From the NCBI GenBank assembly GCA_000091205.1, contig AP006493.2: a DNA stretch of 64,000 bases; one strand, given 5' to 3'. Shown here piece by piece: positions 1 to 61,500 of the stretch (the stretch's first letter is position 1; every line of letters starts with the position of its first letter). The DNA is from Cyanidioschyzon merolae (Eukaryota). Made by a program: the position numbers and the translations under genes. The notes beneath the pieces were generated by a model, which searched no databases, was not told the origin of the DNA, and worked only from the letters and a program-made list of their open reading frames with translations.

Positions 1-3000
1 CCCCCCATTCCAGTATTAATGTCTCTAGCGATTGGTCCGAGGGGAATCTTTTCCATCATAGTACTGTGTGTGGCCACCTGGATACTCCAGTACGCGCAGT
101 AGTATGGATGCATTTTAGCTTGACCGCCTCGTCGTTTCCTATGTTTTGGGCCCCGGCCTTCGCGCGTGGTCTGAATCGCGCGCTCGCTTGTGTTGCTTTC
201 GTGTGTGTCGTTCTTCAACATTTTTTGTCTCCGTTTTGTTCTCTCAACATCTCACATCACTTAAATGCTGCTTTCTCGGTGCCAGGTTGTCTCCAATGTA
301 ACGCAAATATCTTATCCGAACAAAGAAAATGTTCACATTATGTTATTTTCGGTATTTTTCTGCTAAGATTCTTGTCGAATTTTGTTCCCATCCTACCTAA
401 TTAATGGCCTTCCAACTGCACATGGCTCGGTATTGTTGAGCTTTCAGTTATCTGCGACTTCAGACCAGCCCAATGGCTGTGTGCGTTGTTTGCTCCGCTT
501 AGTAACTCTGCTATCCTCATCGTGTTTCTTCACACGATTTTGATCGTTGTTTGCAAGCCCTTCGTCCATACATTCATATCCACCGGGTTTCAGAGCTCTC
601 CGAATATCCACAGTAGTCATCATTGTTCGTATTTCGTTCTTGGTTATGAACTTGCTGTAAGTCTCCCTACTCAGCTGCAAGCTCATAGCTACATATCCTC
701 TTTGGAACATATTCTCTGTTGCAACTCTATCTTTTCTCTTTCAGCGTTCCTAGCACTAGCCGTTACCTAGCCCGAATTTGCTAGTGGCTACCTTCCAGGC
801 GACTCTGGTGCGGTTTCTTCGTCGACAGCTTGTAGGTCCGGGACCTGTTGTTGCCTGCGTCTGGATCCGATTCATGGATGATCCGAGAGCAATTTTGGAA
901 AATAAAGACGACCCGAGCCCTAAGATCTCTGGCAGCCATACAGTGACCGTGGGCACTTTATTTCTATTAGGAGCTGCAATCTCCGTTTCCGCGTACCGAT
1001 CATTCTCTAGGAGGCGACCGATATCACTTTGCGCGGTCGGTATGCAGTATGCAGCACACCGGTCTGTACGCCATTTCGCTCAGCAGCTGTGCGTCGCACC
1101 TCGACTGGGCTCGTTTCTGGAGTGAGCGTCTGATACAGGAAACGGACCCTACGTATCGATGCGCGTGCCGTGGTTGTTCAGACAAGGCACATGGATATAA
1201 TTTGTTGGGTCGATTCAGGATTTGAATGTACGTCTAGCGTCGCGTCCTTACCATAAGCATCCACAGGCGCTAAGCGTACGTTATATCTGTTTCTCTCCTG
1301 CCGACCCGTATTCAGCATTCCGACTCGGATTCCGTTTTCAGTGAAGTTGAGAAGATCCAGTACAGCTGATTACCCTCACCCGTGCCCATCAATACGGTCT
1401 AGCAATGCACCTCAGTCTATCGCTTTGCCAGTGCTTGCGGTACCAGGCATAATTTCATACAAGCTGAGATCCAACATTGTTTACCATCCATATAGGTTGT
1501 TTACAGGAATGAACACATTGTCGCAGGGCAGCATGCAGGGAACTACATGTGCACTAGAAACAGACCATGATCGAGGCCTCTTCTTCTGGTCTGTATTCTG
1601 ATTCGTTGGATTCACGCACAACACTGTTCCCTATGCTCTTTCTTGTACGCGTACACTGAATTCACGAACCACTGTTCACTAATCTGTCTAGTTATTGCCC
1701 CTACACATCTCTAGAGTAGCAATAGCATTGTTCCGCGCTACCGTTCCTGGAAGGCGGAATCAGCCACCGCGCCGCCTCGGCATCAAAGAGCAGCTGGCCC
1801 CGATATGAAAATGAGCTTTTCGCCCATACAAGTCTGCTTGCGGCTGCTACAGGGATGCTTGGTTGGAGGCAAAGATCGCGAGCACCCAAACTCTGACCTT
1901 AGCGTCCTTGCTTCTTGTTTATTGTTCAAAGCTTGCTGCTTGGCGTCTCGCCTTTATTCCTTATGACCTAGAGTTTACCAGATGCGGCTTCTGAAACATG
2001 CTGCCGGCACCGTATCCACAAAGCACAGACTGGCTTCACCTGTAGCTCACTCCGGACATGTAGCGGTTCATGCCGATAAACGCACTAGAGCCAGTACTCG
2101 AACCACTCCAAACGCGGGTACCGCGGAAGAGTCGGAGCTTGTCTGGACGAGACTGTAGCAAACTCCAAGGTACCAGTTGAATGTCGCGCGTCCACTTGAG
2201 CTTCATCTAGACTTACATCATGCACATTCTGACTAGCTTCGCTGCGTGAGGGTTGCGCTCTGGGCTACGCCTCGTCGGTCGGAGTCGTGGCGACAGGCCC
2301 AATCAGGTCGATCGTTCCATAAGCACCGGTTTGTTGCTAGCAGTAGGCTGCCTTGTGCGATCAGCAGGACTGGCACGACTGTGCTCATGAGCACGGGAAC
2401 TTGCTTTGCATTAATTATGAAGTATATACATAGTGTGCGTCTTCCAGGGCACCAGAACATAAATATAAACATCGTTCTACACAAAGTTTGGAGCAGTGTG
2501 CAGAGCTTCTGGCACAGTACACTCTGCCTTTATAACTATGGGGATCAGGCTGTGGTAACGTTCTTTCTAGTGACGTCTACTGACAGCCAGGGTCATTTCA
2601 CTGCCGATATTTTTCCTGGCAGTCCTTCTCATCTGCAGTGCATCAACGGAATAACCGTGAGATATTTACTCCTTGGCCTTATAACTTTCCGTTTTCATGC
2701 TTTCCACTGCAGGAGCTGTAGAATTGTACGACTATAACCAATTCTATTTCTCCACATTCAGTCGCGAATCTTGATCATATTGCATCCAATATTGCATTTC
2801 GTTTTTTTTTTTGAAATAATTTCCATAGATTTTTCTCGTATCTTCCCAACTGTGAAATCCTTAACGCTCTCACTGCACCGTTCCAAGCACCACGCCACAG
2901 TGCTAACAGCCAATTTTCATATCTGAATGTATGTTCGAGCGGAGCGCTCAACAACTCCCCAGCCACCATACTATTTCGAAGCATAGATGCATGCAATGCT

Positions 3001-3327
3001 CGGCTCATTCTTTCTCATGTAACCGACAGCTGCTGCTTTGACTCTCGGGAAGTATTGGCGCTACTGTACTTCTTCGCACATAAAACTGTATTCCGCGGCT
3101 TTCCACGATAGCACACACGAATACTTGTATGCTACTTTGCTCGTTCGTATAAGTTGCTATGGTTGTGTGTCTTACCGTAATGCCTGGCAATATGCTGCGG
3201 GATGCTTTTTCGCGATAGAGCGCGTATTACCATCATTGCTCAAACACTATCCTATGGCAGAAAAAGCGGCACCTAGAGTGGTACCATCGGTACTGTTCGC
3301 CCCTGTTTTGCAGAGCAGATTGCCAGA

Positions 3328-9211: not shown

Positions 9212-9513
9212 CGACTAAAGTCGTTCGCGTACGCATGCATTTCCAGTGAGAAATCTCTTTCTCGTTGCTGCACGAGTGATCGCCCGTCAATTGCACAGAG
9301 TCCGACTTCTGACTCCCGTAGACTGTCTAGCGTTGAGCGCATCGAGCACAAGCGCTCAATGTCTTCCACAGAGACGAGGCAAAGCTCTTATCATTCCAGA
9401 CACCAACCTCGCCAGTACTAGTAACTCAGTGCTCCGCATTGTTGCGCTTAGATATCACAACGATCGTAGTGGCACGATGCTGCACCCCGGCGTACGGCGC
9501 AGCGGACACGCAA

Positions 9514-9682
9514 GGGAATTCCCTCCAGCGGGATGATTTCGGCGCATATGCATCTGCCAAGGCGATGCTTCGAACAGCTGAGCTATTAGGGAATTCCCTC
9601 CAGCGGGATGATTTCGGCGCATATGCATCTGCCAAGGCGATGCTTAGAACAGCAGAGCTATTAGGGAATTCCCTCCCGCGCT
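9514..9682. repeat. 75-bp tandem repeat (2.2 copies) containing GGGAATTCCC and GCATATGC palindromes; upstream of POR
   Basis: The unit GGGAATTCCCTCCAGCGGGATGATTTCGGCGCATATGCATCTGCCAAGGCGATGCTTCGAACAGCTGAGCTATTA recurs at 9514, 9589 and 9664 (partial). Confidence 0.85.
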
Positions 9683-10559
9683 ATGCTTTCATTGGTTCGT
9701 CAGAGCCTTTCCATTGATTATATATTCCATATTGCCGGACCGATATTGGCTTTCGTGAAAGCGTCCATTATGCTGAGAAATATCTGTACGTTCCATCGCT
9801 TTTGCTTACTCTCGGCTGTTCTGGTCGTTTCATAGTTTCTTGCGTGCGTAGGTTATCTGTCGTGAGCACCCGCCGTAGCCTCTCTATCGCGTTGCGTAAG
9901 CACGCTGGAAACAGAGCAGCTCTTGCGTACCACTGGGCGCGTTGGAAGAGGCTTGGGTCATGCTACATGGGGTCAGGGAGATATTTTTTTCTTTGGAGCC
10001 TCCACGCGGCTCTTGCATACCACTTGCATGCGGTAGCGTTAAACGGTGTACTATTAGTCCACCGCGACGATGTTGACGCCCAGACGCAGCATGCCCGCTG
10101 CTAGTTCCAAGTTCAATTGCGTTTCGGAGGAACTGCCCAGGTTCCCCTTATCACTCTCCACTGAAATTTACACGGGGGCAGGCCGATAGATTTTCTCGGC
10201 TCGCAGACCTCCCACCTAAATGTAACACTGGACCATACGCGAAAACATCTTCCTTTTAAAGTTTACACCAGGTGGCGATATTACTCGCTATCCTGTTTTT
10301 GGATATTGGTTAGCTTTTTTTCTCTGTCGTGCGTCTTGGTAACGCATCGCGAAATCTGGCCGCCACGTCACACTACGTGCGTCTTGCCGATCAACGGAAA
10401 CGCTTTAATGACCTCTCCTGGAGCGACTGCTCTATCGGGGCCACTTGTTTTTGCGATCGAATCGTAGCAAAGTATAGTTTTGGCTTCAATGGCGTTTCAT
10501 TCTTCAAGAAAATGTATTAAACTTATTTTCGCCGTTCAAAGCAGAAGCGTCCACTCAGT

Positions 10560-12728
10560 TTTTCTCCCAAAAAACTTAGACTTATGTACTTGGAGGTAGT
10601 GGGTTTGGTTTGGCCGGTGTTCCCGGATTTCAGAAAGAAACGAGACATATTGCGTAGCGAAGAGGGTCAGGAAAAGAAGAAGAAGCAACATGGGGTGGCA
10701 TTACATCGACGGCTGCAATAGTGACGTCTGTACGACGAAATGGTGGTGGAATCCTATATTCTCCAACATATCAATGATCCGTACGACTGAATGTTGCGAG
10801 ACCCTATCAGAAACCGTGCCGGTTCGTACGCCAGGTATATTTGTACCTTCTCTTTAGGACTGTGGCTTTTGGAGAGCGAGCTGCATTGGAACGTAACGCA
10901 CATCGCAAAAGTGATATTTCCGGAAGAAATTTTCCAAATGACTTTCATCAACCACCTGATTGTTTTTAATGGGAAAACATCGGAGATAAATGAGCGAGTG
11001 CATGCCTTCCTTAAAAATAACGCCAAATACCGCCTCAGCGGTGCTGGACACCGGGGTGACGCAGACATTTACGCATACAGGGCAAAGAGGTGCCTCACGA
11101 ATGTGAGGAACCATAAAATGGCAAACCTCGATTGTTGAGTAATACGGGCCGTCTTTGCGCTGTACCTGGGCCTATTTCGCGAAGCAATGCTTGCAATCAT
11201 CGATGGTATGAAGAACGATCGCCAGCATGAACAGGAGATCAGACTCGTCGACAAGAGGACATCACGCAGGAGAAAGAATGATGCTTTTGTTATCCGCGCC
11301 ACTATTGTAAAACATCGCTCGGTCTTGGGGCATGTCAACCGAAGAGAAAATTTTCAGATATTTGAAAAGACGAACATAGGTATTACTTCCTCATCCTGCC
11401 CTGCTTTATGTTTTCGGACCGAGACCTCCACCGCAGGGCCGACATTGAGCAGAGTGTGGAAAAATGACGAGTGCGAGAAACGACATTGAAGTCTTCTCCA
11501 GATGCGCTTCAATGTCGGTCGGTTATGCGCGTTCAAGTCACATTTTGTGAATATCGACCCCATAGTCCTTTTGCATCTTCAGGATAGAGATCTATCCATA
11601 GCTCGATGTAATCAACAAATAGGTCTCCGGTGAAGATCGGGACGCCTACGAGAAGAATATCTTCGATTTCAAGCGTCCCGAACCGGCCAAAAAAAGGTTA
11701 TTCACTGGAACAATCGATCTCGATGTGGCGCACATATGTGTACACCATCAGCGGTTGAAGGCAGCTCGTCCTATCCCGTCTTCGTTACGGGCGTTGCCGA
11801 AGAACGAACACAGGTTGACGGGCTATGGAACGTATAAGCCCCATGAAAACCACTTTGGCGTCGGCCTTAGTCCCTGTAGCACGAATATCATAACCATCGC
11901 TGTTCCCAAGCGAAGGGAAGATTGCACTGACGGCACCTTACGCCACAAACATATGCTTCTGCTGAGGTTTTCGAGAGAGAGAGATACTATCGAGAATCCG
12001 GTATAATGAATGCAAGGAAGAAGATCGTTACGTGGAATGTAGGAATGAAGGATCACCTGGAGGCTTTGAGCATGGTGACGAGCCGATGAGCGGACATTCA
12101 AGCTTTTCTGAAATTCATGGAAGTTGGGGTTGCTCATTCCGTGGCGCTGTAGGGCGAGTATACAAAGCACCGCTGGGCACGTTTGCGTATGAATCTGTGC
12201 CGTGGTAAGCATCACGCATTCGCGAGCTTTTTCAATCGATTGAACGCCTTGAAAGAGAATCAAGTCAGAGGCTCGTTGTTACATATGGTGTAGGGAGCTG
12301 GGCTCCGAAAAAAAAAAGGACTACACCAGCTCCAGCGGCAGGAATGTACAAAGAATGCGCACTGTGTTTCTCTACGATACCTGTAGGTGAGTTCCGAACA
12401 TCGTATACACACCACGAGTTGGGATGTACTCTTCAGAAGATGGAGATGGAAAAGTGCCCGCGGAGTCGTCATGATATAAAAAAGTAAGGGACAGCTGACG
12501 GGAGAGCAAATGGAAAAGAGGGGAGAAGTTCGTGGACTACTTGCATTAGTAAGTACGACTACCATCGGCAAGAAACGTATGGAGTTCGCGAACCGAGTCT
12601 TTAACGCTGCAATCAATCCACGGAGATGTGCGGGAATAGACAAAAGACTCCCAGCGTCGACACGAGAAAACATTGTTGGACAACCTCTTAAACTGGAACT
12701 ATATGAGAAAAAATGGTACCCACAGTAG
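10560..12728 (+). pseudogene. TnpB/Fanzor-like RuvC nuclease reading frame, copy 1 (multiple frameshifts and stops)
   Basis: Basic stretch (EEGQEKKKKQ), then ...RLYDEMVV..., then the segment homologous to copy 2 (WNVTHIAKVIFPEEIFQMTFINHLI ... HRGDADIYAYRAKRCLTNVRNHKMANLD). RuvC-I-like position SPCSTNIITIA. Zinc-finger-like MYKECALCFSTIPVGEFRTSYTHHELGCTLQKMEMEKC (12344-12480). RuvC-III-like EFANRVFNAAINPRR (about 12585-12630), with the expected Asp replaced by Val. Confidence 0.5.
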
Positions 12729-12890
12729 GTGGCCGGTCGGAAAAGACGGGGAGGCGTCTGCACGTCAGCTAGAGATTTTTGGTCTAGGGCGAGTTTCTCG
12801 CCAGTACTGTACACTGCCGGCAGCAACGTTTTTGTTTTGAAAGGTGTTTGTTGTCGTCGTCGGGTGCGGCGGTCGTACGAGACGTTTCGG
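12729..12890 (+). ncRNA. Candidate omega-RNA scaffold region (conserved non-coding tail of element copy 1)
   Basis: The non-coding sequence just after the stop codon is conserved between the two copies at a level similar to the coding sequence. In TnpB/Fanzor systems the guide RNA scaffold overlaps and extends beyond the 3' end of the ORF. Confidence 0.25.
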
Positions 12891-14005
12891 TCTCAGAAGC
12901 TCGAGCCGACGCTTCCAAGACACTGCAATACCGTTCCGGTTTTGAAGCATAACCACGATAGCTGCGTATGGAACGTTTCGGTGCAAGTTTGCGGAAGGCA
13001 GGGCTTCCGAAGGAGCGCTGCATCAGCGCCTGTGCTGCATAGAGCGAAACTTTGTACCAGAATTGCTGGGACGCGAGAGGAACGTCAGAGAAGCTGGAGG
13101 CACATTCCTGGTCACTGGAAGCGCTGACGCGACTCGGGCGTTTCGGCACGATTTCGGCTTTACCGCACTGAAGCGCTTGTGCAGCCGCTCTCAAGGCAGA
13201 AGCTGTGCCATCATACCTACCACAGGGTATTCGGTTCGTTCCACTTGCATCGTTAGGTCACTGTTCGTACGTCGCTTTAAGGGTTTTATTCGTCGCCCAT
13301 GCGTGCTGATGCACACTTCCGGCTCGTGTTTTCCAGATCCATACGCATAGAGCAAAGTCTGTTACGGTCATACTCGGAAACTAAGCCTTCGGCGCCGCGC
13401 CCAGGTTCCTGGAGCGTTGCGATGCCGTCCAGCCAACATCAGTGAACGTTAAATCATGGCATACTTTTATCCTGCGGTTTACGATGGTTGACCTGAACCA
13501 GGGTATCTCGGGCCAGGCGCGATACATATCGGCATCCGGGTAAGCGTACGTTATGCCGTACCAGACCCGCAAATTTCACCAGCTTTCATCCACGCATCGC
13601 TTTGGAGAATTTTGAGTCTGTTGATTTGATCCTTGTTCGCTGTTGCGGATGCGAACTCCATCACGTCCGGTATCCATGACACGACTAGCAGGTTTCAATG
13701 ATGATAGTAGGCGAACGCTACTCTGCAGTTGCAATTCTGGTGCCACCTTGTCCTTTAGCAATGCTGTCCATTTGGAACAAGCTCGCCGAGATGGTTACGG
13801 ACGCTCCCCTCCACACCTTTTCTACGGTGCCAAGACCTACCAGTTTGGCATAGGTATCCAGCATATCTCAGTCCTCCTTGTTCATCCGCTTATTTTGAGT
13901 ACAGACCGAGCACGCTTGTGCAGAGCCCGCACTTCGACGAGGCATTTGATTAACGTCCCTGTAAACGATCCGCATCCAACGCGTTACCATGCGCAGGCAA
14001 CATGC

Positions 14006-15070
14006 TCAAGATGCTTTCTTCGGCGTGCTCTGGAGTGCCTCTATACTGGATTGGAGGTCTTCTTTCTCGTCACTTTCCATGAACGGCAGTATTTGTAGTA
14101 CTTCAACGACACCATTCCGACCTAGCACACAAGGCAACGACAAGAATACATCCGCCGACTCGAGGCCTCGCAACGAGCCCGCATGCGTCGTTATTGGCAG
14201 CACTTTGCGCCGATCATGCACAATCGTTGTAACGATGCTTCCAACAGCGCTGCCAATGGCCCAGTTGGTGTAGCCTTTCAGCTTAATGACCTCGTAAGCC
14301 GCGGCTACAACTTGCTGATGGACACCTTTCACCAGATCATAGAATGCTGTGGACGCGCTCGCAGCGTCGGTCATGCGCTCGAAGCATGTTCGCAACGGCA
14401 CGCCACCAACCGTAATACCACTCCGGTACACGAACGAGGAGTCTCCGTGCTCGCCCAGTACCATGGCCTGGACGGAAGCGGTATCGATGCCCAGCCGCTG
14501 CGCCAGAAGTGTGCGGAAACGCGAAGAGTCCAAATATGTCCCTGAGCCAATCACACGTTCGCGGGGCAAGCCACTCATCTGCCACGCTAGATGTGTCAAT
14601 AGATCAACGGGGTTACTCACAACCAACAGGATTGTGTTCGGCGAATACTGCACCAGGGGCGGAATAATGCCTTTGAACAATGCGGCATTGCGATCCATGA
14701 GCTCAAGACGACTTTCTCCGGGCCGCTGACGCACACCTGCCGTTATAATACATACTGCTGAATGTGCTGTATCCTCGTAGGACTCGGCAGCCCGGATGCG
14801 GGTGCTATAGAACGCACCTCCATGCTGCAAGTCCATAACTTGACCCTTGAGTTTGTCCTTAAGAACGTCCACCAGTACCAGCTCACTACAAATATCTCGG
14901 GTCAAAATATTATACGCGCAAGCAACGCCAACGTCGCCAGCTCCAACCACGGTGATGCGGACGGGGTACGAACGTGCAAGCGCCGCACCCGGCGTGTCGA
15001 TCGCAGGCGAGACCTCCCCAAAGAGACTTCCCTGAAGCTCAGCCGCTGCCTCGTCGATCCCTGACGTCAT
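14006..15070 (-). CDS. LDH: L-lactate dehydrogenase (LDH/MDH superfamily, LDH-type Gln at the specificity position)
   Basis: RITVVGAGDVGVACAYNIL...LVDV...GQVMDLQHG (Rossmann fold). ITAGVRQRPGESRLEL (Gln102 and Arg109 equivalents). VSNPVD. LGEHGDSS (catalytic His). Ends in TGA. About 30-aa N-terminal extension. Confidence 0.85.
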   Translation of the reverse strand: MTSGIDEAAAELQGSLFGEVSPAIDTPGAALARSYPVRITVVGAGDVGVACAYNILTRDICSELVLVDVLKDKLKGQVMDLQHGGAFYSTRIRAAESYEDTAHSAVCIITAGVRQRPGESRLELMDRNAALFKGIIPPLVQYSPNTILLVVSNPVDLLTHLAWQMSGLPRERVIGSGTYLDSSRFRTLLAQRLGIDTASVQAMVLGEHGDSSFVYRSGITVGGVPLRTCFERMTDAASASTAFYDLVKGVHQQVVAAAYEVIKLKGYTNWAIGSAVGSIVTTIVHDRRKVLPITTHAGSLRGLESADVFLSLPCVLGRNGVVEVLQILPFMESDEKEDLQSSIEALQSTPKKAS

Positions 15071-16334
15071 TCCAAAGAGCGCAGTTCCACGATTTGCTTC
15101 CTTGCGAGACAGATCTTCGAAAAAGTCCGACTACAGGTTTTAGATCGCCCGAGCTGCGGTGCAGGGTTGTTTCCAGCACTGGTGCCGAGATCGCTACAAA
15201 CCCGTGATCGTTTTGTTCTCCAGCACTATAGGCCTCGCCAAAACTAGGTACAGTGCTCTTTGATAACACAGCTGTCTGATCCACGAAGGTATTGCTTTAA
15301 GTCAGAGGGAACGCCCGAGACTGAGCGCCCTGAATAAAGCATGCTATCCGTTGAGGACACAAAGATGCACTTGAGGGCTTTCGCGATCGCCCAGAAGCGC
15401 CTTCCGGAGATTCGATCCAGAGCGATGCGCGTCTCGATGACGAGTCCGCCTCCGGAGCGTTTTTTTCTTTTTGATGAAAAAACGTTTGCATTGACCATGC
15501 ATCCCAGAATTCGGAACGCACGATGGCTTCCGGGGATATCTCGATCATAGTGCACCTGTCCTCAAGTCCCATTACCCATACTACCTCTCTGATATACTGG
15601 TCGTTTCGTATGTTCTATCGAGCGCCGAGCCTGTTGTGAGCACCCGCTGTAGCGCTTATACCGCTGAAGCAGGTGCTGCACAGAGACAGAACGGCTTTGC
15701 CATACCACTAAGGGCGTCCGCTCGAGGAATGATTCACCTGAACCGGAATCAGGGCTATTTGTCATTCTGGGAACATGCAAAATGCGCAGACAGACCTACT
15801 ACCTGCGACAGCGCGAAGTGCTGTACTAGGATTCCACTGCGACCAGGGCGAGGCCCAACGCAGCATCCTGTGCATAGTCTCAGGATGAAATGCGCTGCGA
15901 ACGAGCTACGCAGGTCTTGCAGCAGCAGCAGCAGCAGCAGCGGCGGCCACTTTAGAGGCATACCGAGCTCTAGCCCGGTAGACTCGACCGGCTCGCGGGA
16001 CCTTCCGCCTCGAACATAAGCTTCCGATAATACGGCGATCTATTTCCCCTTAAACGCTTATCGTAGAGCGGGAAAAAATTTTATATCGTTTCTTGTAAAT
16101 TGTAAGTCACTGTCCTTTTTCCTATATGGCGCGCTCGATACGTGCATCTCCAAGTATGGCACTTAGGAGACACGACGCGTGTGTCGCCATTGAAGAGAAA
16201 CGCGATCGTGACGACACGTTATCTTGTTGTTCTAACGGGCAAGTTGTATATCTGTGGAAGTCGTAACAAATCATAGTTTCCAGTTCGATTGTGTCTCAAC
16301 CCTCAAGTAAACATATTCAATTGATTTCTCGCAG

Positions 16335-16342
16335 TATATAAT
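16335..16342 (+). promoter_or_regulatory. TATA-box-like motif upstream of the Fanzor-like ORF (copy 2)
   Basis: TATATAAT in an AT-rich stretch 52-59 bp 5' of ATG 16394. Confidence 0.3.
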
Positions 16343-16393
16343 AGAAGGGTTCAAAGAGCGTTCTTTTTCACAGAAAAAAATGAAAAGAAAGTT

Positions 16394-18568
16394 ATGAAAA
16401 AGCAAGTCGACGATCCTGGAGGCCCAGTGTCGCCTGCTGCCAGAAATAAAAACAAAAAACAGAGCCGAGTCCAGAAGAACAGGAAAAGAAGAAGAAGCAA
16501 AAGGGGAGGCCCTAAGTCGAAGGCGGCAAGAAAGACGACTGTACGACGAGATGCTGGTGAAAGCCTGTCTTCTTAAACATATCGACCATCCCTACAAGGA
16601 AAATTTGCGAGACGCTATCGAAAAACGTTTCGATTCGTACTCCATGAGTATTTTCAAGGCGTCGTCAAGACTGATGCATTTGGCATGGGAGATGTACGAG
16701 AACGTGGCGCACTTAGAAACGGTCGAGATTCCGGACGATTCTTTCGATAAGACCTTTATTCGACACCTGATGCTTGGCACAGCGGAAACGCGGAGGGAAA
16801 ATGTGCTAGTGCATGGCCTTTACGAAAAACATCCCTTTTACAGGTTCGAGGGTACTCGATACAAGCGTGACCGGGATATTTACATGTACGGAGCGATGAA
16901 GTATATCACGAACCTGAAGAATCCTTTGGCAGCGAACCTCGAACGTTTCATGATACGCACCGTGTCTGCACACTGCCCGGGCATCTCTCGCAAAGGAGTA
17001 TGGGCGATTATCAATGGCATCACGAACGATCGTAAGCGTGAAGATGAGGTTGAATTTGTCAGGGAGAAGGCGTCATGCAGGAGTACGAATGAAGCTGCTG
17101 TAATGCGTGCGGCGATATAATAGCACCGCGCAATCTTGGGGTTGCCGAATCCAACAGAAAGGGTATCAGATTTAAAAAACGATAAGGAAAGATACTATTG
17201 CCTCATCCTGCGATATTTTTTGTCTCTGGACCGAGGGCTCCAACGCGAGGCAGAGATGAAGGTGAGTTGGAGAAAAAATGAAGAGTGGGAGAGACGGAAG
17301 GCTCTGCTAATGGGAAAGTGCGTCAACGTCATACCAATGTGCAACATCAAGTCACATTTCGTGACTATCGACTCCAGCGTCCTTTACGGCATCATGACGG
17401 AGATCATTCCGGAGTTCGATGTAAACAGGAAGGAGTTCACCTGTGATAACCGGGAGACGGACTGGAAGAATAGCTTCAATTTCAAACGTCTCGAAGTCAA
17501 CAAACAAAAGGTATTCACTGGGATGATCGAATCCGATGGATTAGCCATGTGTATACACTATCGGCGGTTGAAGACAGATCGTCCAGTTCCGTCCTCAGCG
17601 AAGCATGAAGATGAGAAGGATATGGGTCCTGCGACGAAGAAAGTGCATGGGAACGACTTTGTCGTTCGCGCGCACCCTGGAAACACGAATATCGTAACCA
17701 TCGCAGCACCCAAGCGTGCGGAAGATGGTACTGACGGCAACTTGCGTCAGAAAGACACGCGTCTGTTGAGATTCTCGAGAGCGAGATTCTACCGAGAATC
17801 GCGTATAATGGATGCAAGGAAGAAAATTAAGACATTGAATGCAGGATTGCGGGAGCGCCTTGAAGCTAGAAGGGAGGTGACGAGCCGTGAAGCAGACTTT
17901 GTAGCTGTTCGGGAGTTCATGGAAGTTCGCGTTGCTCATTGGGAGGCGTTGTGGAAAGAATACGCCAAGCCGATGCGAGCTCTTCTGCGTCCGAATCCAT
18001 ACTGTGGGAAGCAGCGTGCATTTGACAACTTTTTCAATGAGTTGAGCTTCTAGAAGGAGGACAAATCACAAAGGCTCGCAGTGGCGTACGGAGCAGGGCG
18101 CTGGAAGACCAGGAAAGGGACTACGCCACCTCCAACGACAAGAACGTTCAAGGAGTGCGTAAGACGTTTCGTTACGATACCAATAGACGAGTTCCGTGCC
18201 TCGTATACACACCATGAACTGGGGTGCACACTTCAGAGCGTGGAGATGGAAAAGTGCCAACGGAGCCCTGAGGATATAAAAAATACGGACCGCTGACAGA
18301 AGAGCAGCTGGAAAGTATGGCGAAAGTTCGTGGGCTACTTGCATTAGTACGTACAATCAATGGCGAGATACGTATGGGGTTTGTGAACCGAGACTTTAAC
18401 GCCGCAATCAAGATAAGGAAATGTACGGTGACGGAGAGAAGACCTCCAGAGTGGACAAGAGTGAACTTCAATGGACAACCGCTCAAAGTTGAACTGTATG
18501 AGAACAAATTGGAATCAGTAGAGGGGTGCCTGTCGAACAAGACTAGGATGCGTCTGCACAGCTGCTGA
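16394..18568 (+). pseudogene. TnpB/Fanzor-like (OMEGA-type) RuvC nuclease reading frame, copy 2; interrupted by in-frame TAA-TAG (17118-17123), TAG (18054-18056) and a frameshift near 18297-18316, or alternatively by unusual introns
   Basis: N-terminal basic NLS-like segment NKNKKQSRVQKNRKRRRSKRGGPKSKAARK (16394-16576). Two long ORFs in frame, 16551-17120 and 17136-18053. RuvC-I-like position VRAHPGNTNIVTIAAP (17673-17699), with His where the catalytic Asp of G-I-D-x-G is expected. Possible RuvC-II region ADFVAVREFMEV. Zinc-finger-like segment KECVRRF...YTHHELGCTLQSVEMEKC (18081-18296). RuvC-III-like GFVNRDFNAAIKIRK (18377-18421), matching the TnpB/Cas12 D-x-N-A-A-x-N-I signature. Confidence 0.55.
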
Positions 18569-18685
18569 AAACGTACTGTCGAAAGCGTGTTTCACGCTTC
18601 AACTGTACACCGCTGGCGGCAGCGTTTTTCTTTTGAACGGCGTATTTCCCGAAGGTCGTCACGAGAGCGAGGACTTCTATACAGC
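18569..18685 (+). ncRNA. Candidate omega-RNA scaffold region (conserved non-coding tail of element copy 2)
   Basis: Same reasoning as for 12729-12890. Conservation stops just before the UFD1 start codon. Confidence 0.25.
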
Positions 18686-18696
18686 AATAAGTTGTC

Positions 18697-19707
18697 ATGG
18701 ACGACAATATGTTACCGGACGATGTTGTGGGGCCTCTGCGACCAGCACGCCCCGTGCGGAGGCAGCTCGAAAGCTTCTCGCTTGCGTTCTCGAACGCAGC
18801 TCGGCCAGAGTACGAGCTTGGCGATAAAATCCTGCTTCCACAATCGTTGCTTGCGGAACTCATCCAATGGAATACCGAAGATCCAATGATCTTTCGCGTG
18901 CAAGCACAAAGATCCGAAAGAGTCACGCACGTCGGGGTGATCGAGTTTACCGCTGAGGAAGGCAAGTGCTACTTACCTCACTGGTTGATGCAGAACCTCG
19001 CCTTGCAGGAAGGCGACGTCGTACAGCTAGAGACTGCGAGTCTCCCAAAGGCTCGCTATGTGAAGCTGCAGCCACATCTAACTGAGTTCACGCAGATGAC
19101 GAACCCGCGGGCAGTGCTGGAGACGAGACTTCGGCACTATACCGCACTAACGGAGGGTGACGAGATCGCGATTGAGTACAACGGAAAAATGTTTTGGTTG
19201 ACGGTCATTGCTTGTGAACCGGCAAGCGCTGTATGTGTGACGGACACCGACGTGAGCGTCGAGTTCGCACCGCCGCGCGATATGCCCCCGGAGATGCCCG
19301 CGGTAAGGACAAACGCCGGGATGAGCAGCACATCGCAGTGCGCTGGTCGAATCGAGTTTGGGGACGCCACCGCCGCCACCGCTGGGGAACCCGCTGCAGC
19401 AACAACTTCCCGCTCATTGTGGCGCAGAAAGAACGAAAAAGCCGCTTCCGGGGATGAAGGCATGACCACTGGCAGCCGCGATGGCGTGCCGAACGCGCCA
19501 GCGAATGCACAGCCGCAGCACGATGACTACTGGAGCAAGCTCTCGGGGGGTCGGACGCTCAGTGGTCGACCAGTGTTTGCGTCTGATTCACCCAGAACCG
19601 TGGAAACATCAACAGGTACACCGAGCAGACCAAAGGCACAACCGACCTCAACCGATGGTCCCAAAAAGTTTGTACCCTTCTCCGGTACAGGTCGGACGCT
19701 GCGCTGA
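18697..19707 (+). CDS. UFD1: Ubiquitin fusion degradation protein 1 (UFD1)
   Basis: ILLPQSLLAELIQWNTEDPMIFRVQ...THVGVIEFTAEEGKCYLPHWLMQNLALQEGDVVQLETASLP...FTQMTNPRAVLETRLRHYTALTEGDEIAIEYNGKMFWLTV aligns closely to the UFD1 double-psi beta-barrel. Ends in TGA. Intronless. Confidence 0.9.
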   Translation: MDDNMLPDDVVGPLRPARPVRRQLESFSLAFSNAARPEYELGDKILLPQSLLAELIQWNTEDPMIFRVQAQRSERVTHVGVIEFTAEEGKCYLPHWLMQNLALQEGDVVQLETASLPKARYVKLQPHLTEFTQMTNPRAVLETRLRHYTALTEGDEIAIEYNGKMFWLTVIACEPASAVCVTDTDVSVEFAPPRDMPPEMPAVRTNAGMSSTSQCAGRIEFGDATAATAGEPAAATTSRSLWRRKNEKAASGDEGMTTGSRDGVPNAPANAQPQHDDYWSKLSGGRTLSGRPVFASDSPRTVETSTGTPSRPKAQPTSTDGPKKFVPFSGTGRTLR

Positions 19708-57040: not shown

Positions 57041-58117
57041 CTCAGCTTTGATTACTTCGTGATCTGCCGTTTGCGCGGCTGACAGTGCACCATCTCGCGC
57101 ATGCAGCTCTGTTTCGCACCGTTCTTGTCTGTCGGTTTTTCAGCATGCACCCGCACTCGTAGCGCATGTACGTCGTGCTGAACGCACCGACAGGAAGCGT
57201 GCGGCATAGGCACCTGAGCTTATTGGACACTCCCGTCGAAGCATGAGCAGGTCCGCGTCCTTTGCGCGCTTCTGAACGTCCAGCGTCATAGGCTGCCGCC
57301 AGGAAACGATTGGACCTGCCGGGGATTTTCGCTTGGAATTCACCGATAATGCCGGTGAATGCGAGTTTCCCGCCTCTGTAGAAGCGACACCGTTTGCGAC
57401 CTCAGCGTAGTACCAAGGACGCCCACCAAAGACCCTCCACACGATGCATTTGGTCGCTCATGGACGCTCGGAATAAATTATAGGAAGCATAACCCTCGGC
57501 TCCATACGGTGCCTGGAGCGTCGACTTGGGTCCTGATGCCGCCACCGCTCCCCTTGCTGTTCGTATGCCTTCTAGCGCCCATCACGTCCGACTGCCGCTC
57601 ATACCGAGCGATTGAAGAGGTTGAACAGGTTCATCCGCTTTCCGTTCAGGTTGTGACCTCCGCCATCTTTCAATAGATAATCGGTGGCGGTGATGATTTC
57701 CCCCCAGCGGGGATCGACGCACGGCACGTGACCTTTCCCTTCATGTGCCCGGATCCGTTGGATATGCGTTTCGTGGCTCGACGCAGGTTTCGGATTCACA
57801 AGCGTCACAAAGACCGTCGAGCTTGGTATCCCGTCGGTCGCCGTCGTCCCTGGAAACGAGAAATCTTGAACGAGCGCCGCCAGTGCTCTTCGTGTGGCTG
57901 CTCGGACGCTTCAGGCTTACTCGCAGAGAGCAGCGGCACCGCACAGAGGAGGCCATCCAGTACACAAGTGTCTACTGACGCGCGATTCACCTTGATCTGG
58001 CATACCGAGACCACGTCGAATAGACGCGTGACGTGCACCGGACGGTCGGATCCCGAGATGGGGGCTGCTCAGCTCTGGAAGCACCTGTCCAGAGAAACGT
58101 GGTAGCACAGGAGCCAA

Positions 58118-58121
<4 letters not shown>

Positions 58122-58182
<61 letters not shown>
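58122..58182. repeat. (CAGG)n microsatellite (about 15 units), the reverse complement of the (CCTG)n at 31199
   Basis: aggcaggcaggcagg... for about 60 bp. Confidence 0.9.
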
Positions 58183-60999
58183 TGCGCTTCAGCCACTTTT
58201 CGGATACGATATCTGCAGGTGCGACGCCGAGCACTAAACGATATCGTCGGGCGATCTGGGGCGATTCTGGCTCTCGTTGCTGCATTTTTTTTCGAAGTCG
58301 ATACCAGTTGGAGCTCTTGCGTATCCAGCTCGTCATTTGCCTCCATCGATATCCAAGAATCCCGTCAACCTATCTCCCCTGTTCTGGACCACTGAGGTGA
58401 GGCTGCGACATGCAGAGGGCGCGCTGCATGGGGCGCTCGACATTGGCCGGCATGTGGTTTTTGAGGTTGGCCCCAGACATGCCGGCACCTGCGCTGCGGA
58501 CGTTCTCATTACAGACGCCGGCCTACGAAGCGTCACGGCATGCTGGGTGGCGTGTTCTCAAACCCTGGATGCCACGACCAGGCCGTATTGCATCTTGTTT
58601 TCTGGCCATCTGTTGTCGCACGAACGTTTCATCGAAAGGTTATGAGAGGAATGTAGACAACTGGCGGCCGTGCGTCCAGCCCTCCGATGAGCAGATGCTT
58701 GACGAGGCGCGTCTGGGCGAGCGCAGCTGGGCGAGCCTTCGTTGAGTACGAAGCTGCGCGATCCTGAATGGCGTCTCGCATCTCACGGCTTGACAGATTC
58801 TCGCGGGTGGTGCATTTCTTGGGGAAGCGGTGGCATCGCTTTGAGACAGATCTTGTCGCTCCGACATCTGTTCCTCCCCGTCGCTCCTTACCCTATTCTC
58901 GGAAGGCTCTTTCTCTGGTTCGCCCGGTGGTCGCTTTTCTTTCTCTAGTTCCTGGCAGGCGCCCTGCATTCCATCTCTATCGAGCATATCTGTATGTCGT
59001 TCTCCCAGTGGAGACTCAGGCGCACTGGGTGGAAGGTTGCACTGAAACTCGCCCTTTCTATGTATGTATCGACTACTCCTCAAGCACCTCTCCATCGTCG
59101 TATCCGCCGAGAGCTCGCCCACGGACGGAAGCGCGCCTCTCAGCTCCCGTCCGGGCACGAGCAGCGCGGCGACGCATCAGCTCATGGCTTGCAAAGGTGG
59201 AGAATGGCTTCTCCAAGAACGGTGTCACAGATGCGGACGGCTCGTCGAATGAGTCGTGAGCATCCATCCATGGTTCGACAAACTGAGCAGGCTCCTTCAG
59301 CTGGACGGAACCAGGACGAATAGGCTCACGCAAACATCAGCTCAATGCCAAGCTCAGCTGCACAATCCGTGGCCGCTCTTGCGTGACAGAGGGCGACCTT
59401 GTCCAAGAGCGTATCAGAAGAATGTGGAAAGGAGAAGCCGAAAAGCGCTTCGACGCATCGTGAGGAGTTGAGTGATCACGGCTCTTTTGCTATTTGGTGT
59501 TGGCGACACCGAAGCCTCGCACCCAGGCCAGCTGGTGCCGTCCTGCTCGCTAATCTCCTTTGTAGGAATAGCGATTTGTCCCTCTTTGAGTAGGCATTCA
59601 CAGGTGTACCATCCCTCCAGATTCGAGTCTCAGCGATTGAGACGAACACCTCACGCTCCGGTAACAAACGTCCACGCGTCCATACGAGATCAATAGAGTG
59701 TTGTTTATTGCACGACAGTCTTCACGACGAGCGTTTTTCTCCTGTGTCTATCAGCGTGTCTTCATCAGCATTCGTATGAACCACACGGAAGCCTCACATC
59801 CTATGGCTTCCTTCGCCGTGTTCCTAGTAGAATGCATGGAATTCAATGGATTATCCAGGACACAGTCGTCTTGGTGGCGTTCGGTGACTTCTGTTTCGGG
59901 TGCACGATGCTCAGGACAGAGACGAGAACAGGAGCGCTTCATCCACTTGCGTATTAAAAAGTATCCGACATGTACGAGAATGACGATTTTTCGCAAACTA
60001 GCAGTCACAGCACCAAGTGTGCACGAGATTCTACTCCAATGTACAAAATATATTCCTTTTATAGTATACCTGCGAGAAAGACAATCAAATACGAATCAGG
60101 CGCTCTGGCACTAGAATCTCAGACTTCGATACACTTTGTCACAGAATACTAGGAGAGATGCATGCGATGACGTTTCCCCACGCACACAGAGATTATCATT
60201 CGAAGCAAGTGCCAGATTAAAATTCGAGACTGGGGTGTCCACGCTGTCTTGCCATTCGATTTTTCCAGCCATTTTTCAGAGGCACAGCCTCGGCATTCGA
60301 GGTGCAACGATGACGGCATGGGAATTCATACGTAGAGTTAGAATTCTCAGTCGTTATTTAGGAGAAGCATCTTCTACGCTGCGTCATGGGAATTCGTCAC
60401 GACACCGGACTGTCTATCTTTCGCGAAGCCTTCGAACAAGTTTTCATAGCATGACCGATGCCATTATCCAGTTCGTACGTACAGGTCCCTACTATTCTTC
60501 TTACCTCACATGCAATATGGTCAAACCACGCATTACTCAAGTTTTCGATTTTTCTGTTCGACGGCTACTCGTGGGCGCAGCATTACACGCAGGGGCATCG
60601 CTGACGAAAGCGACTCGGCGTCGTCACTCGAAGACTTGCTCACAAGCTCATGCCACAATTCACGTTACGTCTCACGCAGAGTAATCGATGCCAGTCGGAA
60701 CACAAATCCTCCTCTCTATTTTGCCATTCGCTAAACGGGATTCGATCGCAGCATGGTGCCTCCGACTAGCTACGCTCTCAGAGGATCCCGTCTCTTCACT
60801 TTCCTCAGAGAAGCTTTGTAGAGTCTGACATGAGTCATTACGGCGATTATTTTTCGTGAATCGCGCGTCACTGCTTTGCACGAAGGGGTCATACGAGGTT
60901 AGAAATATCCCAACGTGTCCTCCTGCCTGAAGTTTACTTCCTGCATTTGTTTCATCATGGAAAAACATCGCATGCCACAAATCCTCCTTCAAATGCAGC

Positions 61000-61500
61000 A
61001 GCATGCGCTTCCATATGCAGCTGACGGCATACTCTCCGAGCGAATTGCCTAGAAAAAGCCAGTGATCGTGGGGTCCAGCACTGGGCGCGGAAGCAGAGCA
61101 GGGTATCGAGCGGAGCCGTCTGTACCGGTCAGCCGCACACCCCGAGCAGAGATGCATGTCTAAAAGAGCCACAGGGCGATCATCGTAGTGCCCGGTGCGC
61201 TGGGCGTTCGGGAACACCTGACCGCAACCAAGCTCCATCGTTACGAAAGGCGTATCGAGACAGGTTGCGAAAAAGATGATCATGGCAAGTGAAGCGTAGA
61301 CCACAATTTCCGCCCGTGCATGAACTGTGTCGACAGCTTCTGGAAGCTGCGTGATTGGGACTTGAACGCCGCCATCAACATCATTCGACTGCTGACAACG
61401 GATCTGGAGAGACCGGAGAGACCAACGTGTCTGAGGGCAGAGATACAAGAGATAGGGAAAGGAAGCAATGACAAAAAATGACTGATATGCGTAGTATTTA
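61000..61500 (+). repeat. ~0.5 kb dispersed repeat, copy B (pair with 53420-53960)
   Basis: See copy A. It overlaps minus-strand ORF 60672-61448, whose product shares a segment (VDTVHARAEIVVYASLAMIIFFATCLD vs ISFHAHAEDAIYALLAVSVCILYRFD) with ORF 53547-53891. Confidence 0.5.

Follow-up and report, generated by a model that had tools for sequence, protein, structure and literature searches.

Two decayed repeats bracketing an LDH gene of Cyanidioschyzon merolae are almost certainly copies of the Fanzor1 element CMe-1A

Bao and Jurka (2013, Mobile DNA 4:12, PMC3627910) described CMe-1A as a transposable element of Cyanidioschyzon merolae that encodes a Fanzor1 protein and is present in about 150 copies, approximately 80% identical to a published consensus of 3,169 bp. 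The 734-aa protein is encoded by a single exon, some copies elsewhere in the genome retain intact reading frames, and the 5′ 635 bp are 95% identical to a separate element, TE-N2_CMe. The element has no terminal inverted repeats (TIRs) and no detectable target-site duplication, and its transposon class was left unclassified. The same paper defined Helitron2 and listed a C4 zinc ribbon within the TnpB/Fanzor signature; CMe-1A was classed as Fanzor1 by its describers although its protein lacks this ribbon.

Biochemical and structural work on Fanzor1 appeared in 2023-24, and later censuses included red algae. Characterised Fanzors use an RNA derived from the 3′ non-coding sequence beside the right transposon end, and about 60% of Fanzors carry a nuclear localization signal in a disordered N-terminus (Jiang et al. 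2023). For SpuFz1 of Spizellomyces punctatus (PDB 8GKH, 9CEU-9CEZ; Saito et al. 2023), the omega RNA and the CATA target-adjacent motif (TAM) are experimentally known. The two proteins are only about 15% identical, and SpuFz1 has a CxxC...CxxC zinc ribbon that the CMe-1 clade lacks. The SPu-1 element has 33-bp TIRs and TA target-site duplications, and CMe-1A has neither.

CRe-1, CRe-2 and CRe-3 of Chlamydomonas reinhardtii (Bao and Jurka 2013; CrFNuc in Jiang et al. 2023) are Fanzor1 genes in non-autonomous Helitron2 transposons. Like CMe-1A, they are algal, high-copy, non-autonomous Fanzor1 carriers without a transposase of their own, with end hairpins, T-run targets and variable or chimeric 5′ parts. 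However, the CRe genes are split into 5-10 exons, compared with a single exon in CMe-1, and the ends of the CRe elements match confirmed Helitrons; for CMe-1A, the flanks and end structures only hint at such a link. ISDra2 (IS200/IS605; TnpB, PDB 8H1J) shares with CMe-1A a RuvC nuclease core, subterminal hairpins, the lack of inverted repeats and target-site duplications, and a guide RNA expected to cover the gene's 3′ end and the element's right end. Unlike CMe-1, ISDra2 TnpB is a prokaryotic protein of about 400 aa, paired with a TnpA Y1 transposase that has no equivalent gene near the examined CMe-1A copies, and its structural match to the CMe-1 model is weak and partial (Foldseek E=0.019, 273 columns).

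We analyzed a 64,000-nt stretch of DNA (the window), which exact protein matches to its genes identified as part of chromosome 11 of C. merolae 10D, in line with the guess of an intron-poor algal host in the original prediction. A lactate dehydrogenase (LDH) gene on the minus strand (14006-15070) lies between two direct repeats, copy 1 at the lower and copy 2 at the higher coordinates, and the neighbouring genes of the copies are LDH and a UFD1-like gene. When 15001-19200 was compared with the window by blastn, 16480-18643 of copy 2 aligned with 10668-12847 of copy 1 at 68.7% identity over 2,205 columns, together with two weak 5′ matches (15585-15653 with 9809-9879, and 15804-15915 with 10029-10142). 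Outside the repeat limits, no match between the copies was found in this search, and the flanks of the two copies are therefore unrelated. The proposed pair of diverged direct copies bracketing LDH is thus real and its unrelated flanks are borne out, although the identity between the copies, about 69%, is slightly lower than the 70-75% claimed.

To place the copies on the published element, we used the CMe-1A consensus from Additional file 2 of Bao and Jurka (2013). Copy 2 aligned with it in a single blastn alignment (15473-18642 with consensus 2-3169, 82.2% over 3,195 columns), and copy 1 aligned from 9708 to 12844 with consensus 14-3167 at 73.5%. Combined with a coordinate map, this gives a full-length copy 2 at 15472-18642 (plus strand, consensus 1/2-3169) and a full-length, more decayed copy 1 at 9698-12846 (plus strand). 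The element limits originally set at 15598-18685 are replaced by those of the consensus, 15472/3-18642 and 9698/9708-12846. The usual family rule is about 80% identity across 80% of the length; copy 2 lies within this convention, and copy 1, at 73.5%, lies below it and is therefore counted as an older CMe-1A member. Both copies share with CMe-1A the colinear 3,169-bp consensus, the 5′ TE-N2 module, the single 734-aa frame, the 3′ end and the lack of TIRs, and they differ from it as single insertions that have decayed through stops, frameshifts and the loss of catalytic residues. We conclude that copies 1 and 2 are almost certainly full-length, independently inserted and since decayed members of CMe-1A, a non-autonomous Fanzor1 element of C. 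merolae. Because the alignment runs end to end, no plausible refutation of this identity remains, and the novelty implied for the family gives way to an element published in 2013.

Approximately 80 further copies in hot-spring metagenomes have common termini and adjoin unrelated host genes, and they suggest several features beyond the 2013 description: a 2.5-kb core, exchangeable 5′ modules and T-rich flanks. In copy 2, the 5′ module (15472-16117, plus strand) corresponds to TE-N2_CMe, consensus 1-635, on the basis of the published identity of the two elements. The core Fanzor unit (16127-18642, plus strand, consensus approximately 645-3169) is delimited by a junction common to the metagenome copies, and a conserved hairpin lies at its 5′ edge, at about 16129-16145. 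Many metagenome copies lack the 5′ module and start at consensus position ~645. Upstream of this one junction, the core is preceded by no fewer than four distinct sequence contexts, an inverted TE-N2 module among them, and a GCGC..GCGC hairpin recurs at its 5′ edge. At the other end, about 25 independent copies show homology that stops sharply after ...GAAAGGCGT, immediately before a T. The element is preceded by a T run in its 5′ flank, with T at −3 and at −2 in 13 of 15 copies each, and the 3′ flank begins with TT (T at +1 in 25/25 copies and at +2 in 24/25), suggesting one or two extra T's past the published 3′ end. The only inverted similarity linking the two ends is subterminal, a perfect 10-nt inverted repeat between consensus 5-14 (GACAAAACGT) and the sequence just upstream of the hairpin H1 (ACGTTTTGTC), with a score reached by 1% of shuffles; TIRs are absent.

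These ends bear on how CMe-1A moves. We consider it possible, though unlikely, that the element is a non-autonomous rolling-circle transposon of the Helitron2 kind, whose terminal hairpins are replication start and stop signals and possibly also part of an omega RNA. Besides the absence of TIRs and of a detectable target-site duplication, the T-run flanks resemble the preference of Chlamydomonas Helitron2 for insertion between TTTT and T/C, hairpins occupy both the very 3′ end and the core's 5′ edge, the 10-nt inverted repeat is perfect, and the exchangeable 5′ modules fit a Helitron-style bypass of the element end. However, about 62 nt separate the 3′ arm of this repeat from the element end, whereas 20-30 nt is typical of Helitron2, and only 8 of the arm's 10 positions are conserved in the metagenome copies. 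No Rep/helicase gene was found near the metagenome copies whose neighbours were examined, and Bao and Jurka, who defined Helitron2, left CMe-1A unclassified. Metagenome contigs with an identical LDH cover 12879-15359 and break at the transposon edges; no empty (pre-insertion) site was found among them, so the exact insertion point is unproven. More generally, no transposase was detected beside the six metagenome copies with examined neighbouring genes. An IS200/IS605-type TnpB element was also considered and rejected, given the red algal host and the lack of an adjoining TnpA or serine recombinase, both next to the LDH and UFD1-like neighbours and in those six copies. CMe-1A must be moved by a transposase acting in trans.

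The 3′ non-coding tail of copy 2 (18584-18642, plus strand) consists of H1 (18584-18598), a conserved ACTACTGTACAC box and the terminal hairpin (18622-18642). Given its sharp homology end and conserved hairpin, we regard this tail as a candidate for the 3′ end of an omega RNA scaffold, for a transposition signal, or for both. When the registers were scored directly, the terminal hairpin was found to be conserved in two mutually exclusive registers with G·U pairs. The sense strand folds more stably than the antisense strand (−26.7 versus −22.3 kcal/mol), and the mean folding z-score was only −1.1. For the last 220 nt, the RNAalifold consensus was weak (−6.5 kcal/mol) and built on long-range pairs; the terminal hairpin is absent from it, since each of the two subfamilies pairs in a register of its own. 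A search of Rfam yielded nothing above gathering thresholds, which, like the weak consensus and the z-score, speaks against an omega RNA. By analogy with SpuFz1, GtFz1, PpFz1 and TnpB, the Fanzor1 protein would bind an omega RNA (fRNA) transcribed from the element's 3′ end and spanning the last part of the reading frame as well as the hairpin-rich tail of 60 nt, with the sequence immediately past the 3′ terminus as its guide. The complex would cleave matching DNA adjoining a short TAM, and this cleavage may help the element to persist or home. The hairpins could instead be transposition signals at the DNA level.

The arrangement around LDH might also be read as the arms of a segmental duplication, or as a host multigene family, perhaps tied to a multi-copy LDH. 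The repeats are indeed in direct orientation around LDH, and three C. merolae LDH paralogues fall into one 90%-identity cluster, which indicates that LDH itself is duplicated in this species. Yet homology breaks off at precisely the published element limits on either side, each copy is nearer to the CMe-1A consensus (82.2% and 73.5%) than to the other copy (68.7%), dozens of other copies have these same ends and unrelated neighbouring genes, and 69% identity makes a poor recombination substrate. We therefore hold a duplication or a host gene family to be very improbable. Since dozens of copies have common defined termini and unrelated flanks, the repeat is a dispersed transposable element, as had been proposed. 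A composite element in which the repeats carried or duplicated LDH was rejected as well, the flanks being unrelated and the copies only 69% identical. The flanking of LDH by two CMe-1A copies is most simply accidental, the result of two insertions into adjacent intergenic regions of a very compact genome.

The encoded protein was then compared with known nucleases at increasing depth. A single-sequence search with the repaired copy 2 protein gave no match in Pfam or PDB, and a 7-sequence profile gave only a chance haemagglutinin match in PDB. Pfam was also blind to the CMe-1 consensus protein, with the tail of TNB (OrfB_Zn_ribbon), RD.NAA.NI, as the sole match (E 0.2-0.5). A profile of 46 family sequences matched the solved Fanzor1 chains PpFz1 (E=4e-22), SpuFz1 (E=2.2e-16) and GtFz1 (E=4.9e-12), spanning all three RuvC motifs. 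We modeled the homologue P0001, which starts after the consensus N-terminus, with AlphaFold on the 46-sequence alignment and obtained a pLDDT of 80.4 and a pTM of 0.79; a shallow alignment gave an unusable model (pLDDT 38). In a Foldseek search of PDB, the best seven matches were all Fanzor1 (SpuFz, PpFz, GtFz; E 2e-16 to 4e-14, TM up to 0.72), with SpuFz matched over its full length (E=2e-16, TM 0.72 on target), and the best Cas12/TnpB match reached only E ~1e-2. The predicted TnpB/Fanzor-like nuclease homolog is thus a Fanzor1 by profile and by modeled fold, the latter being far closer to SpuFz, PpFz and GtFz than to any Cas12 or TnpB.

Three residues, D431, E603 and D672, are invariant in the 46 family sequences and occupy the same alignment columns as D383, E541 and D606, the SpuFz1 residues named in the literature. 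The correspondence was obtained by residue count on the profile-SpuFz1 alignment, with the DPG Asp at D383, the DEF Glu at E541 and the NRD Asp at D606. As in SpuFz1, a [TS][TS] pair belongs right after the RuvC-II acidic residue, and it appears as VDEFRTSY in the consensus, IDEFRASY in copy 2 and VGEFRTSY in copy 1. The motifs quoted in the original prediction are all present: the RuvC-I segment VRAHPGNTNIVTIA / GLSPCSTNIITIA (consensus counterpart GADPGNTNIITIA), the motif IDEFRASYTHHELGC, and the RuvC-III motif as NRDFNAAIKI / NRVFNAAIN, so that FNAAI does fall on RuvC-III. Each outcome that the original prediction named as refuting it was looked for, and none was observed. The basic N-terminal stretch was likewise recovered, with the clusters GKKRKT and KTKKQKREARRQR in the consensus; in the P0001 model, which begins after this N-terminus, the first ten residues are of low confidence. 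By its consensus, an intact CMe-1A carries one intronless 734-aa gene for a Fanzor1 with REC/WED, a split RuvC and the triad D431/E603/D672. Judged from sequence, the family is Fanzor1, its members and consensus carrying the triad, and the window copies are relics of members, not working members. Contamination by a bacterial TnpB was rejected, as the window is one unbroken stretch of a C. merolae chromosome and the protein matches Fanzor1 best.

A Cys/His zinc-finger-like block had also been proposed, but no C4 ribbon exists in any of the 46 family members. Between RuvC-II and RuvC-III, two CxxC motifs occur in 0/46 members, and a single Cys column is kept in 33 of them. The 'CALC' string is found in copy 1 only, at a place where the consensus reads KECARRF, and is therefore not a conserved feature. 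Since the family lacks the signature C4 ribbon, nuclease activity of the intact CMe-1 protein is assumed. Matches at E≤1e-3 comprise 2,677 representatives of 50%-identity clusters. The homologues bear the precomputed Pfam label DUF8286. A second homologue search, for the taxonomic spread of the clade, returned only Cyanidiales-like metagenome proteins.

We projected both copies onto the consensus frame. Of the reading frames proposed at 16394-18568 and 10560-12728, the start at 16394 coincides with the consensus ATG, but neither frame is open. The decayed Fanzor1 frame of copy 2 (16394-18568, plus strand) is interrupted by three internal stops (consensus codons 242, 243 and 557) and by 5 frameshifting indels, and it terminates five codons before the consensus stop, which maps to 18583; its protein is 72.8% identical to the 734-aa consensus. 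The RuvC-I catalytic codon (17673-17675, plus strand) has changed from Asp to His (D431H; VVGADPGNTN to VVRAHPGNTN), while the RuvC-II Glu codon (18189-18191, plus strand; IPIDEFRASY) and the RuvC-III Asp codon (18392-18394, plus strand; FVNRDFNAAI) are retained. In copy 1, the frame is broken by 10 internal stops and 13 frameshifting indels, and two catalytic Asp residues are lost (RuvC-I D431S and RuvC-III D672V). Reassigned stop codons were rejected as the cause, as LDH and the neighbouring genes are readable with the standard code. By their sequence, both copies are dead pseudogenes with catalytic residues lost, and for this reason non-functional. That they might be functional or host-domesticated RNA-guided nuclease genes beside LDH has virtually no chance of being right, refuted at both loci by the sequence itself, even though the copy 2 protein is mostly readable with RuvC-II and RuvC-III intact and intact CMe-1A frames were reported in 2013.

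A third relic belongs to this protein family but has diverged much further, to about 30% amino-acid identity, and was detected at 57078-58805 on the minus strand by tblastn and the family HMM. It is frameshifted and shows three colinear matches (HMM positions 40-80, 256-317 and 467-571), and no similarity to CMe-1A was found at the DNA level by blastn.

Since the 2013 paper already covered CMe-1A with its Fanzor1 protein, copy number and unusual structure, the locus itself has little discovery value. The sharp 3′ terminus with its two-register hairpin, the T-rich flanks, the modular 5′ part and the third relic are small additions to a known element. For annotation, approximately 6.3 kb around the chromosome 11 LDH and approximately 1.7 kb near 58 kb are dead transposon, not host genes. 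Two leads are of specialist interest: a Fanzor1 clade without the zinc ribbon usually treated as part of the TnpB/Fanzor signature, and flanks and end structures that hint at a Helitron2-like element. A joint reading, which we offer tentatively and think rather doubtful, combines them. CMe-1 may belong to the large Fanzor1 clade that lost the zinc ribbon (the 2,677 representatives), carried in Cyanidiales on a 2.5-kb core that is mobilized into T runs in a rolling-circle, Helitron2-like manner and swaps its 5′ modules by bypass of element ends, and the 3′-terminal hairpin may both terminate transposition and form the final stem of the omega RNA. The window holds no intact copy; one from a thermoacidophilic alga could interest engineers of heat-stable compact genome editors. 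If the joint reading is true, the nearly intact metagenome copies L001 and L003 could specify a Fanzor that is adapted to heat and acid and functions despite lacking a zinc ribbon.

We aligned the CMe-1A consensus, taken from Additional file 2 of Bao and Jurka 2013 (PMC3627910), with the window. For C. merolae, that study recorded CMe-1A as the sole Fanzor1 family, with about 150 copies, each at about 80% identity to a 3,169-bp consensus that encodes a single-exon protein of 734 aa. The element was described as lacking terminal inverted repeats, its target-site duplication was listed as undetermined and its transposon class was left as unknown, while the 635 bp at its 5′ end shared 95% identity with TE-N2_CMe, a separate element (PMC3627910). 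Red algae have also been covered in later Fanzor censuses. Copy 2 (15473-18642) corresponded to consensus positions 2-3169 at 82.2% identity in a single alignment, and copy 1 (9708-12844) to positions 14-3167 at 73.5%. Each copy resembled the consensus more closely than it resembled the other copy, as expected of two independent insertions that decayed separately. The two repeats are copies of CMe-1A, an element already published in 2013 and not a new one.

With 15001-19200 as the blastn query, a single further copy was found in the window (16480-18643 against 10668-12847, 68.7% identity over 2,205 columns). The copy-to-copy homology continued 5′-ward in two further, weak matches, and this search gave no match outside the copy limits. 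Together with three-frame translations, it confirmed the repeat, its approximate limits, its orientation and the motifs quoted in the original prediction. An L-lactate dehydrogenase (LDH) gene of 354 aa lies between the copies (14006-15070, minus strand). Four ORFs in the window, encoding LDH (BAM80408), a UFD1-like protein, CMK009C and a glycogenin-like protein, exactly match annotated C. merolae 10D proteins (852,849-bp chromosome), so the host had been guessed correctly as an intron-poor alga. From the gene numbering, the window is probably close to the left end of chromosome 11. This LDH is one of a multi-copy set: three C. merolae LDH proteins, encoded on different chromosomes, share one 90%-identity cluster. 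Metagenome contigs with an identical LDH stop at transposon edges and contain 15045-15296 repeatedly, which may reflect an assembly artefact or a duplication of the promoter region. At 9513-9680, immediately 5′ of copy 1, a 75-bp unit is repeated in tandem (2.2 copies, 96% matches).

To score decay, each copy was projected onto the consensus frame, alongside three-frame translations. The protein proposed in the original prediction was present in the translations, but in pieces and with interrupted frames. In copy 2, the frame begins with an ATG at 16394, meets two adjacent stops near 17118 and a further stop near 18051, shifts near 18285 and ends at 18568; the copy 1 frame was interrupted many more times. 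Copy 2 carries 5 frameshifting indels and 3 internal stops (codons 242, 243 and 557), against 13 and 10 in copy 1. By consensus numbering, the RuvC-I aspartate D431 is replaced by His in copy 2 and by Ser in copy 1, the RuvC-II glutamate is retained in both, and the RuvC-III aspartate D672 is retained in copy 2 and replaced by Val in copy 1. Neither copy can give a working protein, and both are decayed relics.

The repaired copy 2 protein alone matched nothing in Pfam or PDB. Public metagenomes yielded 50 close relatives of it, some of which keep GADPGNTNII, VDEFRTSY and NRDFNAAINI intact, and the precomputed Pfam label on the homologues was PF26935 (DUF8286). When 1.84 billion cluster representatives were searched with a profile, 2,677 relatives reached E≤1e-3, and 412 reached E≤1e-30. 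In a full-length alignment of 46 sequences, D484, E656, R724, N727, A729 and N731 (numbering of the homologue P0001) were invariant. Among solved structures, the profile of this alignment matched the Fanzor1 proteins of Parasitella parasitica (E=4e-22), Spizellomyces punctatus (E=2.2e-16) and Guillardia theta (E=4.9e-12), and the alignments to all three covered the three RuvC motifs. By residue count, the invariant acidic positions fall on SpuFz1 chain residues 777, 935 and 1000; once 394 residues are subtracted for the MBP fusion, they become D383, E541 and D606, exactly the magnesium ligands given by Saito et al. AlphaFold on the same alignment produced a confident model (pLDDT 80.4, pTM 0.79), whose seven best PDB matches were all Fanzor1 structures (E 2e-16 to 4e-14, TM up to 0.72); Cas12 and TnpB structures matched only at E of about 1e-2. 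The Fanzor-like reading thus holds on all three points where it was open to refutation, namely a profile match, alignment of RuvC-III and defined termini. CMe-1A encodes a Fanzor1 homologue, and the catalytic triad is conserved across the family.

SpuFz1, PpFz1 and GtFz1 have a CxxC...CxxC between RuvC-II and RuvC-III. Paired CxxC motifs were found in this segment in none of the 46 clade members, which keep one Cys column there, and the CALC motif is present in copy 1 only. The zinc finger proposed earlier is therefore unsupported, and its absence is the single point in which the CMe-1 clade differs from the published TnpB/Fanzor signature. Directly 5′ of the RuvC-I motif is a 75-bp (25-aa) unit (KHEE.KEA.PATQKVQDNDLVV, 17598-17672), whose tandem number varies among copies (metagenome loci L001, L010, L041 and others): P0001 has four, and copy 2 has a single unit that has lost 12 bp. 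The model shows this segment as disordered (pLDDT <50, residues 388-470).

The element ends were defined from 80 related hot-spring metagenome loci, 82-90% identical to the consensus. The metagenome copies L001 and L003 are close to intact. About 25 independent copies share a sharp 3′ homology limit, immediately after ...GAAAGGCGT and before a T. The tail of about 60 nt past the stop codon comprises a GC hairpin, a conserved ACTACTGTACAC box and a terminal hairpin, the last in two forms with different pairing registers. The first, ACGTTTTTC-TTTT-GAAAGGCGT, was found in 12 copies including copy 1 and copy 2 (8-9 of 9 pairs), and the second, CGTCGTTCGA-CTT-TCGAACGGCG, in 8 copies (9-10 of 10 pairs); neither group fits the opposite register. 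G.U wobbles occur among the pairs, and folding is more stable for the sense strand (−26.7 kcal/mol) than for the antisense (−22.3 kcal/mol). The terminal hairpin looks like a selected structure. Its site corresponds to the guide RNA ends in Fanzor and TnpB, but it could equally be a transposition signal at the DNA level; Rfam and RNAalifold added no support for RNA structure in the 3′ tail. In several metagenome copies (loci L023, L026 and L064), an open frame runs from within the element 3′ end into a downstream host gene, e.g., for glycerol-3-phosphate dehydrogenase or an RsmB-like methyltransferase, indicating that elements often lie directly upstream of host genes in the same orientation.

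At the 5′ end, copies begin at consensus position 1 or about 645. At the latter, a common core that opens with a hairpin follows at least four distinct upstream sequences, including an inverted TE-N2 module; CMe-1A therefore looks like a composite of a 2.5-kb Fanzor core and a TE-N2 module. Rfam also gave a match below threshold to the C/D-box snoRNA snR75 (15420-15510, plus strand; 27.5 bits, E=0.006, gathering score 40), which overlaps the copy 2 5′ terminus within this module and is probably due to chance. The flanks are T-rich, with TTTTY ahead of position 1 and TT(T)G past the end, and a 10-nt inverted repeat pairs the 5′ end with the sequence immediately upstream of the first 3′ hairpin. 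Such flanks, end hairpins and inverted repeat recall the Fanzor1-carrying Helitron2 elements of Chlamydomonas, but the likeness is incomplete, and we consider it unlikely that CMe-1A is a Helitron2-like element. No transposase was present among the neighbours of six metagenome copies, which are ordinary host genes.

The same protein family has left a third relic, also frameshifted, at 57078-58805 (minus strand), with about 30% amino-acid identity, no DNA similarity to CMe-1A and three colinear family-HMM matches (positions 40-80, 256-317 and 467-571). This relic stems from a much earlier insertion or else from a second Fanzor1 lineage; CMe-1A is the only C. merolae family listed by Bao and Jurka (PMC3627910). 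The RuvC-III end of the family profile also aligns with a short frame at 61293-61478 (plus strand; ...RPCMNCVDSFWKLRDWDLNAAINIIRLL...; E=3.3e-4 within the window), which has a CxxC just upstream, like canonical TnpB/Fanzor proteins. This frame had no Pfam match, runs antisense to a 258-aa ORF (60672-61448, minus strand) and may be a fourth, distinct relic. Among distant clade members, P0050 (30% identity; metagenome locus L089, 412-3541) overlaps the end of a DDE_3 (Tc1/mariner-type) transposase gene, the classic Fanzor1-in-Mariner arrangement, and P0049 (L088) is surrounded by short genes lacking annotation and a D12 methyltransferase, perhaps a viral setting.

By analogy with characterised relatives, an intact Fanzor1 protein of this family would bind RNA from the element 3′ end, with the flanking sequence serving as the guide. 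Matching DNA next to a TAM would then be cut, which may aid persistence of the element.
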